Shown piece after piece: positions 3,000 through 25,828 of a stretch of 26,984 nucleotides of DNA (positions within the stretch are counted from its first letter, which is position 1; every line of letters begins with the position of its first letter). Below the pieces are notes generated by a model. That model was not told where the DNA came from, did not search any database, and saw nothing but the letters and a program-made list of their open reading frames with translations. The stretch covers positions 1 to 26,984 of the IMG/VR virus record IMGVR_UViG_3300020045_016803; one strand, given 5' to 3'. The stretch is from a virus. Lineage: Duplodnaviria; Caudoviricetes. The position numbers were made by a program, and so were the translations under genes.

Positions 3000-3437
3000 A
3001 TGTGTAAATGTGCAGCACACCGTTGCTATGAGTTGCAAGAGATTGTAACCAGCAGCGCCCAAGTAGCATTGCCGGACGATACCCGGATACGCCGAAACCT
3101 GGTAACATCTATCCAGGTGCAGCCCAGCGACCCGGCAGGCTCGTTGACGTTCCTTAGCCCGCAGGGCCGAACGCTTGCATCCTGGTCGGTGCTCAATTCA
3201 TCGTACCTGAATGTGGTAAACCAAAACGGCACCAAGTTGGCCCCTATCCCGCTTTCGGCGCTGATCCGCACCACGTCCGACCAGGAACCGCTCGCGGTGT
3301 CGTGGCAACAGATTGACCCGACACAATCATTCATCCAAATCAACACCACGGCAGCCGGCTACAATGCCGCCCATGCCATCATGCTAATGTGGGGCCTTGC
3401 TTGTGATGAATGTGGCGTCACGCCAAACAACCTGTAA
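3000..3437 (+). CDS. Candidate second/minor capsid protein (small beta-rich)
   Basis: 145 aa, beta-rich, Cys clusters at both ends; adjacent to capsid candidate. Confidence 0.5.
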   Translation: MCKCAAHRCYELQEIVTSSAQVALPDDTRIRRNLVTSIQVQPSDPAGSLTFLSPQGRTLASWSVLNSSYLNVVNQNGTKLAPIPLSALIRTTSDQEPLAVSWQQIDPTQSFIQINTTAAGYNAAHAIMLMWGLACDECGVTPNNL

Positions 3438-3454: not shown

Positions 3455-4225
3455 ATGATTACAAGTTTTGAAAATCTGCGCAATTGGTTTGTACAAGCCC
3501 AGCGTACCGACGAACCGGTACACTGGAACCTGTACAGCCATATACCAGGGGAAGCCGAAAAGCGGGTAGCGTTCAACGTGGCGGTAGACGATACAAACGC
3601 CTCTTTCGAAATGCTTATGAGCAATATACGAATGATGAACAACCCAGACGGCAAGCAATTCAAAGTGATGCTTTACCCCAAGAACAAGGCAAACAACCCC
3701 TTGGCGCATTCGATAGTGCAGATTTTCGAAAAAACAAACGGATCTTCTGGAACCGCCCTACCTGCACCTGGCATTGCCGGGCTGCCGGTAGGAATGGGCA
3801 GTATTCAGGAGTATGTACAGAAAGAGGTGCAACTGGAGCGGATGAAATGGGAAATTGACGAATTGAAAAGCGCACTGGCCCAGCCGAACACCGGTTGGGA
3901 GCGTGCAGTAGAAACCATCGGCGCTATACCTGGTATAGAGAAAGCCATACAGGCATTGGTGGTTGGATTGGTGACGAAATTCAACCCCGCAGCCACGCCG
4001 GCCATACAGGCAGCCATGAACGGCACGCCTGAACCGTCGGCGGGCTACGTGGGCGAAATGGATACCGACGACGAACCGGCAGGCGACCCGCAAACCGTGT
4101 TTGCCACAAACATCCAACAGGCTGCCGCTACCCTGAAAACCGACCCGCTCACACTGGCACAGCGCATAAACCGGTTGGTGCAAACAAACCCCGAAATCGC
4201 AAAACAACTTTTGGAAAATGGGTAA
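3455..4225 (+). CDS. Hypothetical structural-module protein with coiled-coil
   Basis: ATG 3455 after upstream stop; helical C-terminal half. Confidence 0.7.
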   Translation: MITSFENLRNWFVQAQRTDEPVHWNLYSHIPGEAEKRVAFNVAVDDTNASFEMLMSNIRMMNNPDGKQFKVMLYPKNKANNPLAHSIVQIFEKTNGSSGTALPAPGIAGLPVGMGSIQEYVQKEVQLERMKWEIDELKSALAQPNTGWERAVETIGAIPGIEKAIQALVVGLVTKFNPAATPAIQAAMNGTPEPSAGYVGEMDTDDEPAGDPQTVFATNIQQAAATLKTDPLTLAQRINRLVQTNPEIAKQLLENG

Positions 4226-4839: not shown

Positions 4840-7800
4840 AATACACAACCTGTTACTGGCCGCTCTGGCCTCCCTTCTCCTGGCAATTCCGCAACGGGCC
4901 GGGGCGCAGTGTCCCGGCCCAAGCCAGCGTACCATGCTCATCAACCTGCAACGTGCCAACGTATTCGGCGGCACCCGAGCAGGACAAATACCGCTCACCG
5001 ACACCTGCGGAAACCAGCGGTATGTGCGACAGGTACAGGTCAACCTCGATACCATCAACTACATACCGGCGCAGACGGGCAACACGGCAAACCTGTCCGA
5101 ATTTGTTTTTGATACCACGGGCGCCCTGTGGTACATTGATTGGAAGGGCGAAGCAATCGAAATGCAGGGCGGCGCCGCATGTGATCAGGATTTTTTGCAA
5201 ATTTCTGACGCCTCTTGCCCGGATAACATCAACGACAGCATCTACCACTACAAATACACGTCCATCGGCGCCCGATACGTGTGGCCAGGGGCCACGTTTT
5301 TGGTGAACGACAGCACCAACGTGAACGGCGCTTTAATGGTCATACAAGGCGACCGCGCCGTAAAACTGGCCCTGTACGACCTCACAAACGAACAGTGGAC
5401 AATGCTTTACGGAAACAACACGGACTTATCCGTGTATTTGCCCGACGGCGGCGCTTTCAATGTCACCACGGCCACCGGCACGCCTACCACGGCGGCAGCC
5501 GACATAAACCATTTCCAGGTAAATACCCTTGATAGCACCGTCACGATGAACCAATACCCCAACACGCGCCTGGATACCCAGACTGTAGCAAATTTTTTGT
5601 ACACGGATGATATTGGCACGATCAGAAGCCAAAGTGTTGATTCGTTCCCACTTGCTGGTCGTGGGGGAATTTATACTGGTAGCGGATTTGTTCCTGATTC
5701 CACACATGCCGAAATTGCCTTTGGTGGGTTTTTCCAATTCGGATACCCTACGGGGGTATTTGATCCCGCTTTTAGGATCACAGACAACCCGCCAACAACA
5801 GCCAGGCAAATAGATATGTACAGCACAAACGTGGCTGTTCAGATAAAGCCTAACACGATAACCGCCACGGCGCAAGACGAATTAAGTGCAATTGTAGATG
5901 ATGGCAATGGAACAGCCGGCAGGTTTGATGTTTTCCCTGGGTATGTCGGCCTGTATGTAGATAGTGTGGCATCTTCAACCGGATGGTCTAGGTTTGTAGC
6001 AACAGCAGATTATGCAGAACTTAATGCGTCGGACGGAGGCACTGGTGGAAGTGCATTGTTAAGGGCCTATAAAACAGCCGGTGTAGATGCTCCATACATC
6101 AATATGGCAGTAAATTATACTGCGGCAATAAATCCAGACAATTTAATTGTTATTGATACGGGTGGCGTTTGGATTAAAACAGGCGCATCTGAATACGGTA
6201 TATCTGGGCAAGTATTGCATACGGATGGACAGCGCACATATTGGGACGATGCAAGCGGAACAAGTGTGAATATATACAACAGCGACGGCAGTATAAGTAC
6301 CCAGCGCACCGTAACCCTATCAGATACCGTCCTATGGGACATAGCCAGCGCAGCCGGCGCTTTCCAGATTGAGGGACTAAACAATAGTTATTTCAGGCAG
6401 TCGGACAACGCAATAGTGACGGGTACGGGTGGCGCATCGTTCAATCTTGGCAGCGGAACACCCATTGCAATGTCCATGAGCCTGGACGCCGGCACGGCTC
6501 GTGTAACAGACAACCGGGCCGGGAAAGTTGGTATTGAATATGCCAGTGCCGGGTATGGAGCAGATTTTACCGATAGTACATTGGTGCACAGGGGCTATGT
6601 AGCAGATATGATTTCAGATAGTATTGCTGGTTCTCCAGCAAATACAAATATATACAACAGTGACGGAAGTATAAGTGTACAGCGTACCGTAACGCTGTCT
6701 GATGAATTAATATTTGATGCTGCAAACTCGGCAAGCGGAATTACATTTAATAGCTTGATTGGAACATCTTTTGAACTATATGAAGATAGGGCTTTGATTG
6801 GAGATTTAGGTAATTCTTTATTTGGTATTGCCCTAAAATATGACGCCTATTCTGGCGATATGTTTTTGGGTAATGTTTTTTCGTCTAACGATGAGTATTT
6901 CTACAGCGGATCGGGAGGGATTGGTATTTTTTCCCCAGCATCTTCTTACTTCATTGGTGGTGGTTCTACTATTATTTCGGTTAGTGGTACCGGTTATTTT
7001 AAATTTGATGATTTTAGAACCTCTAAAACTGGTATAGAATACGCAAGTGCAGGGTATGGAGCAGATTTTACCGATAGTACATTGGTGCACAGGGGCTATG
7101 TTGCAGATATGATTTCAGATAGTTTGCCTGCAAGCTTTGGCGATATTTTACAGGGTGGAAATAGTTTTGGGTCTAATATGACAATTGGCACAAACGACAA
7201 CAACGCGCTAAACATTGAAGTAAACGGAACAACAGGCTTAACGCTCGGTACAGACTATAAATTAGTGGCTACAGCCACGGTGGCGAATACGAACACGGTA
7301 GCAGATCGTTATACTATTCGTACTAACTCCAGCGGCACCCCTTCAACAAGTTTTGGAGGAGGCATACTATTCCAGGGAGAAACCACGACAACTGATAACC
7401 AGGATATGGCTCGAATTTCGTCATATTGGACGACCGCTACGCACGCAACAAGAGAGGCGGCGGTGTCTTTTCAAATACAAAATGGCGGCGGATCACTTGA
7501 AGAAGTTGTAAAAATAGATCGTGCGTCAGTATCGGGTGGTAGCATATATATAGGTCAATCTTCGCCGGTAATTATTTCTGCAAATTCGTTAATTCCTTCG
7601 AGTAACTTTATCGTTGGGAGTTCAGTTAGTACCCTAACGTTATCATCTTCCGCAAGTTCTAACCCTTCATGTATATCGTTCGTAAGTTCAGCCAGTGGCG
7701 CAACATCAACCAGCGGAATTAATTTTGGGGGGGGAACCGCGTACACGCAAACATCTGGGACAAGGAACTATGTTAATATTAATTCTGGTTTTGCGCCGAC

Positions 7801-10505: not shown

Positions 10506-10539
10506 CGGCCTGCGGAACAAGTCCGTGGGCCGTTTTTTT
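10506..10539 (+). terminator. Terminator between convergent structural operon and integrase
   Basis: CGGCCTGCGGA-acaag-TCCGTGGGCCG-T7. Confidence 0.8.
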
Positions 10540-11728
10540 ATGGCTCCATTATCCGGGTTTTGATCTTTGCAAAACCATCGTTTACCAGGTCGGGCAGGTT
10601 GTACAGCATGGTGGTGCCCGGGTTGATATGCCCAGCCTGCTGCATTACCTGGGGCAATGGCAGCAGGCGCAACCAGTCAGTCACGCCGGTATCTTTGAAC
10701 GAGTAAGGGCTGATACCTTCCACATCGCGCAAGCGGCCAGAATCCAACAGCGCATCGAGGCAGCGCCGAAACCGTTTCCATGCCCACGTGCGCGGCCATG
10801 CCTTTTTGGGGTGCGGCGCTCCACCGTGGCCAAAAACATAGTAATTGGTTGGGATATCGGCAAACCGTTTGTCCTGCAGAATTTCCCGGACGTAGGCCGT
10901 CATGGTCGGGAATCGTTCCCGCTTGGTCTTGCTATGCTGGGCAGCCAGGCAAATAATGCCCTGCGACATATCAAAATCCCCTGCACGCAACCGGCGCAAC
11001 TCCGTACCCCGCAGTAGGCAATAGTATTCCAGCGTGACGAACAAAAAAAGGTAGTAGTCGTGCTCCCACAGCCATGCAGCTATGGCTGCCCGCTCGTCGG
11101 GCGTGCATTTGCGCCGAGACTTGCCCAAAACAGGTTTTTTGGTAATACCCCGAAACGGGTTTTCGGCCAACACTTCCCGCTTTACCAGTTCGTTGAAAAC
11201 CGTGCTTATTTTGGTTTTGTAGTTATTCCAGGTACGGTTTGAAAGATCGGCGCCCGACTTGTTTGGTCTGGTGGCTACATAATCAAGAAAATCGAGCGCG
11301 TGTCGCTTCGAAAATTCCGACACCGGCATGGCCCCTACCCTACCCTGTTCTGTCCATCGCAGGAACACGCCGCAAATGCTCCGGTAGTCCTTCCGGGTTT
11401 CTTCCCGATCCGTTTTCAATTTTATGGCCAACGCCATTTTCACGGCATCGCAAAGCGTTTGCGTGGCGGCTCGGGCTTCAATCTGTTCAGGCGATTGGTA
11501 CGGATACCCGGCAGGGAGCAAGGCGTTTATGCGCCCGATCAGCGCCGCAGCCTGCCGTTTTCGCTCCCTTAGTTCGTGGATTCTGTTTAGGTCGCCTGTT
11601 TCCCGGTGGCGCTTGCGCTGCCCGTCTTTCGGGTCAGTCTGGTAGTACACAATCTCCCAGCGGTCTTTTTTCATCGCCAACCGAGCCGGCAGGTACCCCA
11701 TGCGGGTGGACAATTTTTTTTTCTCCAT
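10538..11728 (-). CDS. int: Tyrosine recombinase / phage integrase
   Basis: LRGTEL (R), SKTK (K), YSFKDTG (variant of HxxR), QAGH, TMLY; SAM-like region (RTWNNY, ENPF); ATG 11728 preferred over TTG 11785. Confidence 0.93.
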   Translation of the reverse strand: MEKKKLSTRMGYLPARLAMKKDRWEIVYYQTDPKDGQRKRHRETGDLNRIHELRERKRQAAALIGRINALLPAGYPYQSPEQIEARAATQTLCDAVKMALAIKLKTDREETRKDYRSICGVFLRWTEQGRVGAMPVSEFSKRHALDFLDYVATRPNKSGADLSNRTWNNYKTKISTVFNELVKREVLAENPFRGITKKPVLGKSRRKCTPDERAAIAAWLWEHDYYLFLFVTLEYYCLLRGTELRRLRAGDFDMSQGIICLAAQHSKTKRERFPTMTAYVREILQDKRFADIPTNYYVFGHGGAPHPKKAWPRTWAWKRFRRCLDALLDSGRLRDVEGISPYSFKDTGVTDWLRLLPLPQVMQQAGHINPGTTMLYNLPDLVNDGFAKIKTRIMEP

Positions 11729-20346: not shown

Positions 20347-20636
20347 AAGTGTATAAGTGTAGTTTTAAGGTACTTTTAAAAGTAAATAATTAAATATCAA
20401 TACTTTATCTAACTACACTTTATACTACACTTTAAACAAAAGTAAAATGCAAAGTGTAGTACAAAGTGTAGCACATTTTGGCAGTTTGAGTTACAGGTGC
20501 CCAGGCAACTACACTTTGGCGTGCTACACTTTGAAACGAACTACACTTTGGTTGTTCAAAGTGTAGTTTCTCGCAAGGTTTTGCACGTCAATTGATTAAG
20601 ATGCCAAAAAAGGCAAAAACTACACTACTACACTTT
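20347..20636. repeat. Iteron-like repeat cluster, probable replication origin
   Basis: CTACACTT(T) forward at 20413, 20425, 20509, 20524, 20541, 20628 and reverse at 20355, 20452, 20464, 20559, plus partial copies; AT-rich, non-coding. Confidence 0.8.
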
Positions 20637-20773
20637 GTTTTGGAAAAATTTGAGTTTTGGAAAATTTCTGAAACACACTTTTCAACAAATTGGAAAAAAC
20701 CGCGTATATTTGTAACCTGTTCTCATAGGCTACCGCTGGAATAGCGGCTACAAGTGTTACTTACCGAAGCTAT

Positions 20774-23981: not shown

Positions 23982-24000
23982 CAAATGTAATGTATATTTG
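23982..24000. promoter_or_regulatory. Back-to-back -7 promoter elements
   Basis: Minus TACATTTG (23989-23982) and plus TATATTTG (23993-24000). Confidence 0.65.
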
Positions 24001-24004
24001 TTCT

Positions 24005-24142
24005 GACAACTTTCAGTAAATCGGAAAAAAGTTTCCGACTTTCATTTCTTGAATCACGATACGCCACGCGATTGGCTCCCACGGGTCTTTACTTACCTAA
24101 CCGGTTTGCTGAAGGTTGTCCCCCGTGGGTTATTTTATTTTC
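24005..24142 (+). ncRNA. Structured 5' leader of the cassette operon
   Basis: 24005-24024 pairs with 24101-24120 over 20 bp (3 G-U pairs); alternative stem 24078-24085/24122-24129 followed by a U-rich tract. Confidence 0.55.
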
Positions 24143-24148
24143 AATACT

Positions 24149-24433
24149 ATGAGCATCACCAAAGCAATATTAAGCCTTCCAGTATTTGTAAAGGTGCCGG
24201 AAGGCCCGGAGTTTGAACTTAAAATAAGCCACAACGGCCCTAATATCACCCTGGCCTATGTATTTCTAACCACGCCAAAATCAGGGTATTGGGACAATCC
24301 ATATTTGCGTGAGGAAAAACCATACACATGCACTTTTCTATACCTGTCCGAGTGGATAGAAACAGATGCTGATTTGTTGCGGGCTATTGAAGAAACAAAA
24401 AAGTTTTTGAACAAAAACGGATTAATGCCATGA
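24149..24433 (+). CDS. Hypothetical protein (94 aa)
   Basis: ATG 24149; ATGA overlap with next gene. Confidence 0.7.
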   Translation: MSITKAILSLPVFVKVPEGPEFELKISHNGPNITLAYVFLTTPKSGYWDNPYLREEKPYTCTFLYLSEWIETDADLLRAIEETKKFLNKNGLMP

Positions 24434-24654
24434 CATACAAATATTCATTCGATGAAGATCAAAAAATGGTTATAGTGGCCCTTGATGACACAAGTTTTTT
24501 GGTTTTTACGCCGTCAGGAAATTACATTGCTCCTAATCCTCACCGGCATGCAATTATTGCAGATGTCGGCGAAATAGAGGCAACAGGAAATGAAAATACA
24601 CACGAACTTCTGTTTAAAATCAGAAAGCACATTGATAAAAAAAATAATCCATGA
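24430..24654 (+). CDS. Hypothetical protein (74 aa)
   Basis: Ends just before hairpin site 1. Confidence 0.7.
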   Translation: MTYKYSFDEDQKMVIVALDDTSFLVFTPSGNYIAPNPHRHAIIADVGEIEATGNENTHELLFKIRKHIDKKNNP

Positions 24655-24660
24655 ATTTAA

Positions 24661-24721
24661 TAACTGAATGCGCCCACGACGGGCGCGACGCATAGCGCGG
24701 CTTTACGGGGGCGCGGCGTTA
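24661..24721. mobile_element. attC-like hairpin site 1
   Basis: TAAC...GTTA, 61 bp, GC-rich imperfect inverted repeat; near-identical to site 4. Confidence 0.75.
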
Positions 24722-24754
24722 TGCGGATTTTTTGCCCCAGAAACATTCGACAAA

Positions 24755-24886
24755 ATGAATACATACGCAGTAACAGGAACGTTTCACGGCTCGATTGTCT
24801 ATGCAAACTGTGAAGGCGATGCCCGCAGGGCATTTCACAAGAAGTACAACGGCGAATTAATTACCCATATTCACCGAATTTTTTAA
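24755..24886 (+). CDS. Cassette ORF (43 aa)
   Basis: Flanked by GTTATGCGG (24718) and CCGCGTAAC (24891). Confidence 0.6.
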   Translation: MNTYAVTGTFHGSIVYANCEGDARRAFHKKYNGELITHIHRIF

Positions 24887-24895
24887 TATCCCGCG

Positions 24896-24954
24896 TAACT
24901 GGTGCTTGTACGCCGCTCGCCGTTTAGGCGAAGGTGTACGGGCAAGCATGGTTA
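24896..24954. mobile_element. attC-like hairpin site 2
   Basis: 59 bp; TGCTTG/CAAGCA, TACGCC/GGTGTA, TCGCC/GGCGA stems. Confidence 0.75.
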
Positions 24955-24977
24955 TTCAAACCTTTAATTTTTTCTTT

Positions 24978-25160
24978 ATGCAAACAATGTTGATTTACCT
25001 AAAAAAAGATTTCCCGTGTGGTCGTGGAAAAATCAAGGCTGGAACTTCTTGCATTTGGCATGGAGCAAGAGACAAAGACGGGAAACGAATCGTTGGCCCA
25101 AAAGGGAAAAACGGGAAATTTTACCTAACACGTCACATTCCTGATTCTTATTTTGAATAA
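24978..25160 (+). CDS. Cassette ORF (60 aa, basic)
   Basis: Flanked by GTTATTCAAA (24951) and TTTGAATAAC (25152); stop codon lies in the TAAC. Confidence 0.65.
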   Translation: MQTMLIYLKKDFPCGRGKIKAGTSCIWHGARDKDGKRIVGPKGKNGKFYLTRHIPDSYFE

Positions 25161-25217
25161 CTGGAGCACTGCCGACGTAGCCGCGTTTAGTCGGATATGA
25201 CAGGTAGTGCGGGGTTA
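25158..25217. mobile_element. attC-like hairpin site 3
   Basis: 60 bp; GCACTGCC/GGTAGTGC, CGTA/TATG, CCG/CGG stems. Confidence 0.75.
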
Positions 25218-25230
25218 CACACACTTACCT

Positions 25231-25425
25231 ATGGAACTCACAAAAAAGGAAAAGCAAATAATTGCCGGGCTTAAATCTGGCGGTGTCCTGATTACTGGTA
25301 AATACCCTTCCGTTGCCTTTAAAGACGGCCGCCCTGACATCCATTTTTCGTTTGCAAAATTCTGCGATCTACAATACAAGGGAGTTTTGCGCGAATGGAA
25401 TGGCGATTTTGTTCTTTGTGTGTAA
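25231..25425 (+). CDS. Cassette ORF (64 aa, possibly winged-helix-like)
   Basis: Flanked by GTTACACACA (25214) and TGTGTGTAAC (25417); stop codon in the TAAC. Confidence 0.65.
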   Translation: MELTKKEKQIIAGLKSGGVLITGKYPSVAFKDGRPDIHFSFAKFCDLQYKGVLREWNGDFVLCV

Positions 25426-25483
25426 CTGAGTGCGCCCACGATGGGCGCGACGCATAGCGCGGCTGTACGGGGGCGCTGAGTTA
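25423..25483. mobile_element. attC-like hairpin site 4
   Basis: 61 bp; near-identical to site 1. Confidence 0.75.
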
Positions 25484-25516
25484 TGCGGATTTTTCATCCC
25501 GGTAAAATATAATGCC

Positions 25517-25729
25517 ATGATAGAATTAGGCAGAGCACGAATTACTGCAACGGACATACTCGCCTTTCCAAAAGGCACGATTGTGAATATAGGGGAGTTA
25601 GATGACGGTGACGAAACCGCAAGCGGTGCGGATGCGGAAGGCGGCGAATTGGTTGCATACGTCGCAGACGGTGATAGTAGTCACGATGTAGACGTAACCG
25701 AAGATGACTTTGTTTTTATCCCCGCATAA
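25517..25729 (+). CDS. Cassette ORF (70 aa, highly acidic)
   Basis: Flanked by GTTATGCGG (25480) and CCGCATAAC (25722); stop codon in the TAAC. Confidence 0.65.
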   Translation: MIELGRARITATDILAFPKGTIVNIGELDDGDETASGADAEGGELVAYVADGDSSHDVDVTEDDFVFIPA

Positions 25730-25785
25730 CTCCAAGCCCCACGAAGCCGCCGCGCACAGCGGCGGTTTTCGGGCGGCGGCAGTTA
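25727..25785. mobile_element. attC-like hairpin site 5 (terminal)
   Basis: 59 bp; AAGCCGCCGC/GCGGCGGTTT stem. Confidence 0.72.
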
Positions 25786-25792
25786 TCCGTAC

Positions 25793-25828
25793 AAAATGCC
25801 CGGCACGTACCCCGCGCCGGGCATTTTT
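25793..25828. terminator. Terminator closing the cassette operon
   Basis: AAAATGCCCGGC...GCCGGGCATTTTT. Confidence 0.8.

Follow-up and report, generated by a model that had tools for sequence, protein, structure and literature searches.

Overall organization of the phage genome and its array

The window analyzed here is a complete virus record of 26,984 bases, and its genes include an integrase, a repressor, a primase, an endolysin, glycosyltransferases and a transglutaminase-like protein. The 40 window ORFs scanned gave no match to a terminase or portal family. ORF 2176-2907 was predicted to encode a single jelly-roll capsid protein (model pLDDT of 81.7), and the best match to the model was the capsid protein of Sulfolobus polyhedral virus 1 (SPV1), with an E-value of 3e-4 and TM-scores of 0.39/0.51. 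Because the predicted jelly-roll resembles the SPV1 capsid protein, the window virus is likely a small, tailless phage. The capsid-protein family of this ORF also occurs in gut viral contigs that carry the same transglutaminase gene. The likely host of the phage belongs to the Saprospiraceae, to judge from two prophage-like MAG contigs and a single homolog with a named source. We also found an AT-rich, non-coding segment (20380-20720) with many direct and inverted copies of the CTACACTTT motif, which is also present in the related phage L001 near 6330-6550; this segment is possibly a replication origin or packaging region.

The features relevant to the array are as follows.

10538-11728, minus strand: phage integrase, 396 aa (Phage_integrase and SAM domains)
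23993-24000, plus strand: putative Bacteroidota-type -7 promoter element (proposed from the sequence)
24005-24120, plus strand: long leader hairpin (RNA fold z of -3.48, 0 of 200 shuffles)
24149-24654, plus strand: two ORFs (94 and 74 aa) not preceded by a site (comparison with a relative)
24661-24721, plus strand: site 1, cassette-type hairpin, 61 bp (motif, fold and family-model match)
24662-24896, plus strand: cassette 1, 235 bp, site 1 and a 43-aa ORF (24755-24886)
24896-24954, plus strand: site 2, cassette-type hairpin, 59 bp (family-model match)
24897-25158, plus strand: cassette 2, 262 bp, site 2 and a 60-aa ORF (24978-25160), stop within TAAC
25158-25217, plus strand: site 3, cassette-type hairpin, 60 bp (family-model match)
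25159-25423, plus strand: cassette 3, 265 bp, site 3 and a 64-aa ORF (25231-25425), stop within TAAC
25423-25483, plus strand: site 4, cassette-type hairpin, 61 bp (family-model match)
25424-25727, plus strand: cassette 4, 304 bp, site 4 and a 70-aa acidic ORF (25517-25729)
25727-25785, plus strand: site 5, terminal-class hairpin, 59 bp (position of its class, folding and relatives)
25793-25827, plus strand: terminator-like hairpin with a T tract (fold; absent from the output of a terminator scan)

The five hairpins, each running from TAACT to GTTA, were found on the plus strand with the positions and lengths (61, 59, 60, 61 and 59 bp) given in the preliminary description. They form the sole cluster of this kind in the window and are its only matches to the family models R1 and R2; R2 is a model of host sites that was seeded through R1, so its matches in the window are not independent. 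Two further candidates, the leader hairpin and an AAC...GTT hairpin at 20410-20493, matched neither model and were rejected as family members. Sites 1 and 4 belong to the same subtype (87% identity over 86 nt), and their similarity extends downstream only, while a near copy of site 2 precedes a different gene in L061.

As described previously, the flank after each GTT pairs with the flank before the next AAC, with 4, 6, 6 and 5 matches of 7 past the conserved first base, and three cargo ORFs end in the TAA of TAAC (25158, 25423 and 25727); the first cargo ORF ends 10 nt earlier. The earlier unit lengths of 233, 263, 266 and 302 bp were correct as GTT-to-GTT arithmetic, but the mobile units run from AAC to AAC and measure 235, 262, 265 and 304 bp. 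The single terminator reported for the array was recovered as the hairpin at 25793-25827, whereas its single promoter is a proposal: a sigma-70 scan of the window returned none on the plus strand, and the putative element is TATATTTG at 23993-24000, which we take to match the Bacteroidota -7 consensus.

The four cargo genes of the window had no Pfam, PHROG or PADLOC family match, and the suggested anti-defence function was thus not borne out for them; yet 13 of the 126 cargo ORFs scanned in related arrays encoded DNA methyltransferases. These 13 belong to the 19 ORFs with a Pfam match, together with two PAPS-reductase-like proteins and four others. The cassette 1 ORF had a homolog within another array (70% over 27 aa), and the cassette 3 ORF had one full-length homolog at 70%.

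Structure and spread of the site family

When aligned, 21 family sites of the window and its relatives showed an invariant AAC/GTT foot, unpaired spacers (4-5 nt versus 3 nt), a 9-bp stem running from GC to CG, an upper stem and a bulge in the 3' arm. In these sites, 89.7% of the cells were paired and 73 cells were altered on both sides. The covariation score was 0.479, compared with 0.145 for shuffled alignments (0 of 500 as high) and no more than 0.152 after the register was slid, although the structure was derived from the same 21 sequences, which biases the score in its favor.

A degenerate-pattern search revealed 73 stretches in 58 viral contigs, and the R1 model gave 158 matches across the 63 loci scanned; nine of the 58 pattern contigs had no R1 match or a weak one (<26 bits) and were left out of the unit counts. 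Including relatives found by protein, we obtained 98 distinct inter-site units, of which 94 had intact boxes. In these 94 units, the cognate flanks paired at 4.53 of 7 positions, compared with 2.34 for the flanks of a unit's own site and 2.89 ± 0.11 for permuted flanks (maximum of 3.36 in 5000). The family therefore shares with attC sites an imperfect hairpin, an AAC/GTT box, a covarying stem and ends that are complementary on circularization. Nothing in Rfam came close to a gathering score for the window sites, the exact motif of sites 1 and 4 had 0 matches in viral contigs, single-protein locus searches returned 0 loci, and comparison of the array DNA with cultured phages gave chance-level matches only.

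Polarity of the mobile unit

The offset pairing is silent on which gene owns a hairpin. Ownership was read from four tests: a breakpoint in three phages, the sharing of flanks, the contexts of cassette 4 and the covariation of the base before AAC. First, three near-identical phages agreed completely beginning with the terminal-site TAAC and were unrelated upstream of it. Second, where two sites had a body identity of 85% or more and one flank in common, this was the downstream flank in 16 cases and the upstream flank in 0, and the 17 site pairs with a common upstream flank had a mean body identity of 0.58 (maximum of 0.80). Third, an 89% copy of cassette 4 was found between different neighbors in L108/L146; in L146, its upstream hairpin was 92% identical and its downstream hairpin 56% identical, with the divergence starting at the first base past AAC. 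Public contigs also spanned 25423-25731 with 1 and 0 differences and then entered other hairpins. Fourth, the base before AAC covaried with the first base of the same unit (87 A/T, 4 C/G and 3 mismatches). These results indicated that the crossover lies in AAC and that the unit consists of a hairpin and the gene downstream of it. The hairpin travels with its downstream gene, which is the mirror of integron polarity, and the canonical attC polarity assumed in the preliminary description did not hold. Units are exchanged among phages with their ends at AAC. Their gain, loss and reordering in related phages were precise at the sites, which agreed with the proposed capture and shuffling array.

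The longest ORF lay on the 5'-AAC strand in 96 of the 98 units, and 44 of the ORFs stopped in TAAC. Moreover, the sense strand was the better-folding strand in 80 of 83 cassette-type sites (by a mean of -2.87 kcal/mol), with a GC skew of +0.21. In integrons, the attC bottom strand is cut at the 5' AAC, is G-rich and folds better by 2.12 kcal/mol on average (PMC5027507). With its 5' AAC crossover, better folding and G-richness, the coding strand of the phage arrays thus has the properties of the attC bottom strand. Sites 1-4 of the window precede their genes, whereas an attC site lies downstream of its gene and has a non-coding bottom strand.

These data also bear on whether the hairpins are RNA elements, such as 5' stabilizers or processing sites, that were shuffled by homologous recombination between similar hairpins. 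In the phages, the mRNA strand is indeed the better-folding strand, and hairpin subtypes recur before different genes. However, the junctions unite hairpins that are only approximately 58% identical, exactly at AAC; the two flanks of each unit covary, including four C/G swaps beside the box; and host arrays (see below) have their genes on the strand opposite the folding one. We therefore consider this explanation very unlikely, although the hairpins of the mobile units may have a secondary RNA role in addition.

Terminal site and probable platform

Site 5 belongs to a separate, fixed class of sites that was missed in the earlier reading. Sites of this TAACTC class were last in their array in 40 of 43 cases and internal in 3 of 43; sites of the TAACTG (cassette) class were internal in 74 of 89 cases and last with room to spare in 8 of 89. 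Folding of the terminal class was strand-symmetric, with the sense strand better in 23 of 43 sites. The related phage L001 had a lone terminal site (76% alike) without a cassette at the syntenic place, a closer relative kept both array flanks around a different array, and three distinct upstream sequences preceded one identical terminal site. Because its class is almost always last and stands alone in a relative, site 5 is likely to be a fixed resident acceptor, the equivalent of attI. An attI site lies beside intI in a promoter-proximal position, whereas the fixed junction here is a hairpin at the distal end.

The two ORFs at 24149-24654 were conserved at approximately 92% identity in a relative with a different array, and no homolog was found in the other arrays compared. 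Since this two-gene unit lacks a site and is retained in that relative, it is likely a fixed platform, or else an eroded old cassette. The first unit at 24129-24664, described previously as uncertain, thus looks like part of the platform.

Two separate terminal-class sites, and thus two platforms per genome, were observed in each of L060 and L001. At two other loci (L196:1972-2030 and L197:563-618), an ordinary prophage integrase gene runs toward the array and has its stop codon inside the terminal site.

Host arrays and the candidate recombinase

The window integrase had no NCBIfam family match, TIGR02249 included, in agreement with the earlier statement that the phage lacks an IntI; it is not IntI-like and is probably unrelated to the array. 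A tyrosine recombinase was present in 5 of 35 array-bearing viral records and absent from 2 of the 5 near-complete ones, most of the records being fragments.

R1 had matches in 16 of the 121 genomes screened from the presumed host family, with scoring limited to 45 candidates in each, and family sites were found in host chromosomes downstream of an IntI-like gene. In particular, one genome (G059) contained 58 sites in 240 kb, with none in shuffled sequence and none beyond the IntI-like gene, and its first cassette began 20 nt past the recombinase stop codon. The long ORF lay opposite the AAC strand in 15 units versus 2 on it, of 34, which is ordinary integron polarity, and the cognate flanks paired at 4.82 of 7 positions versus 2.98. 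The same site family thus fills host chromosomal arrays in gene-then-site order, downstream of an IntI-like gene that lacks approximately 43 insertion residues. The G059 array as a whole (C1:3.35-3.82 Mb; L214-L223) extends over approximately 470 kb with 58-nt and 117-nt sites and is headed by the I2-less IntI-like gene; it contains many near-identical, apparently non-coding cassettes of approximately 600 bp, and a block near 3.394-3.405 Mb is inverted.

The host protein aligned to VchIntIA (2A3V) on either side of the approximately 43 missing residues (24 versus 67), which in IntI belong to the additional domain that holds the I2 helix and separates the catalytic motifs, and a motif gap of 58 residues was uniform in all 17 scorable host integrases of 29. 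It scored 199 bits with TIGR02249, below the cut-off of 265, and retained an IntI-like N-terminal SAM domain and the SPL C-terminal motif. IntI-like homologs were found in 70 of 121 Saprospiraceae genomes at E <= 1e-50, the weakest of which may be other recombinases, and a true IntI in 1 of 121. At 25 host integrase loci, all 16 R2 matches were antisense to the gene and 15 were downstream of it; these sites lay near 10 of the 25 loci, and many of the 15 loci without them were at contig ends. A looser regular expression, applied to the 17 integrases with room, gave 5 antisense versus 4 sense sites, and one host integrase locus had a site in the sense orientation. At L201:416-520, a host integrase precedes an attI-like GTT, beyond which come a 50-nt spacer and a site opposite to the usual host polarity. 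A short IntI-like recombinase, with no site found nearby, was observed on a contig that resembles a prophage of this virus family, the contig of L062 (G003:C164:25529-26341; L065).

By association, the host IntI-like enzyme is likely the trans-acting recombinase of the phage sites, which would fit the earlier suggestion that the driver acts in trans or is a non-IntI enzyme. The I2 helix was reported as the step that gave integrases their single-strand activity (PMC7790495), so an I2-less enzyme may not act on hairpins. No excised-circle joint was found in the contigs of eight runs, although contigs cannot show its absence.

The same inverted cassettes could instead be moved by phage integrases, host XerC/D or the recombinase of a helper element. 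The L196 and L197 integrases that terminate within the terminal site, and the integrase genes of the window and L001, are consistent with such a mover. Against it, 30 of the 35 array-bearing records have no tyrosine recombinase, the near-complete pair included, the window integrase lies 13 kb from the array, and host arrays begin at the 3' end of the IntI-like gene. We thus regard another mover as unlikely and prefer the host enzyme.

Comparison with known systems

Qi et al. (2023) reported 17 phage CALINs (PMC9892861), which resemble the present arrays as phage-borne, attC-like clusters without intI that have methyltransferase cargo. The accessible text of that report notes "divergent directions" and describes no inverted polarity, terminal class, host enzyme or inter-phage exchange. 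One of its sites, Polaribacter phage P12002L_attC1, matched R2 with 26 bits; its published bottom strand is the coding strand, and its flanks pair in offset. The layout is thus present in a cultured phage, where it was not described as such. P12002L_attC1 was not recombined by IntI1 (PMC9892861).

An ordinary CALIN would consist of canonical attC cassettes that came from a host integron and do not move within the phage. The AAC/GTT box, the length of approximately 59 bp and the offset pairing are attC hallmarks, and phage CALINs have a published precedent (PMC9892861). However, the polarity is inverted, with host cassettes opposite to phage ones; the L box begins with GC and the spacers are 4-5/3 nt, unlike the aadA7 pattern (PMC9892861, Table S3); units are traded among phages; and a true IntI is as rare in the host family as stated above. 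As the hairpin belongs to the downstream gene, this explanation is refuted as to polarity, and overall we judge it extremely improbable.

With classical integrons (IntI, attI and attC; sedentary chromosomal ones included), the phage arrays share the AAC/GTT R box, the imperfect hairpin of approximately 59 bp, a G-rich, better-folding strand with a 5' AAC cut, cassette ends that pair on circularization, and promoterless, co-oriented genes. In contrast, the recombinogenic strand of the phage arrays carries the site ahead of its gene, a hairpin at the distal end of the operon appears to serve as the acceptor, the L box is GC-initiated, intI is absent in cis, and the candidate enzyme has no IntI insertion. 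The array is mobile and integron-like, yet it falls outside the integron/attC family as defined, as a mirror-polarity variant with a probable non-IntI host enzyme.

The host arrays resemble the inverted-intI integrons of Ghaly et al. (2021; PMC8352920) in that cassettes and recombinase gene point the same way. However, those integrons have a true IntI with the additional domain, and the accessible text concerns the orientation of intI rather than gene-versus-site polarity; unlike them, host cassettes begin at the 3' end of the recombinase gene. Bacteroidetes are unmentioned in the accessible part of that report, and one complete integron was reported for Bacteroidetes elsewhere (PMC9024848, also seen in part). 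A literature search, which covered subscription journals thinly, returned no publication that describes cassettes with the hairpin first or a cassette recombinase lacking I2.

Proposed mechanism

Taken together, we consider it quite probable that the array consists of mobile site-then-gene units exchanged at AAC on the coding strand, with a separate fixed terminal hairpin and with catalysis likely provided in trans by an IntI-like recombinase, itself likely from Saprospiraceae. The host enzyme would act in trans on the phage sites, and site-by-site recombination would excise a circle, in which the foot of the hairpin becomes perfect. Such circles would then insert chiefly at the terminal site; if so, the newest gene would lie farthest from the promoter and old promoter-proximal sites would erode. 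Speculatively, the inversion may keep the genes co-oriented with the phage operon and the recombinogenic strand on the lagging-strand template, an orientation reported to raise attC recombination or excision (PMC5371416).

In a broader reading, to which we give slightly better than even chances, Bacteroidota would have a second kind of integron in which an I2-less IntI-like enzyme acts on folded single-strand sites. Phages, from tailless 27-kb to 40-65-kb ones, would have evolved a mirror-image cassette pool with a terminal acceptor hairpin, both of which would parasitize the host enzyme so that accessory genes, e.g., anti-restriction methyltransferases, can be captured and traded. If true, phages would exploit a host gene-capture enzyme, providing a precise, enzyme-driven route to accessory-gene mosaicism across unrelated virus types, and integron-like arrays would exist in a phylum where IntegronFinder gave almost none, to judge from the accessible part of PMC9024848. 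An I2-less enzyme active on hairpins would make the origin of IntI single-strand recombination directly testable, and the shared layout of the cultured phage P12002L makes experiments feasible.

Unusual sites and cassettes in related arrays

Two L001 sites (1788-1850 and 3284-3336), which share the subtype of sites 1 and 4 and lie in the half of the array nearer the promoter, have kept the AAC end and lost the GTT end. One L001 cassette contains a tRNA-like gene (3810-3882) that ARAGORN called with no assigned anticodon. A short, ORF-less cassette in L125 (2395-2523) has a tRNA-like T-arm motif and received no ARAGORN call.
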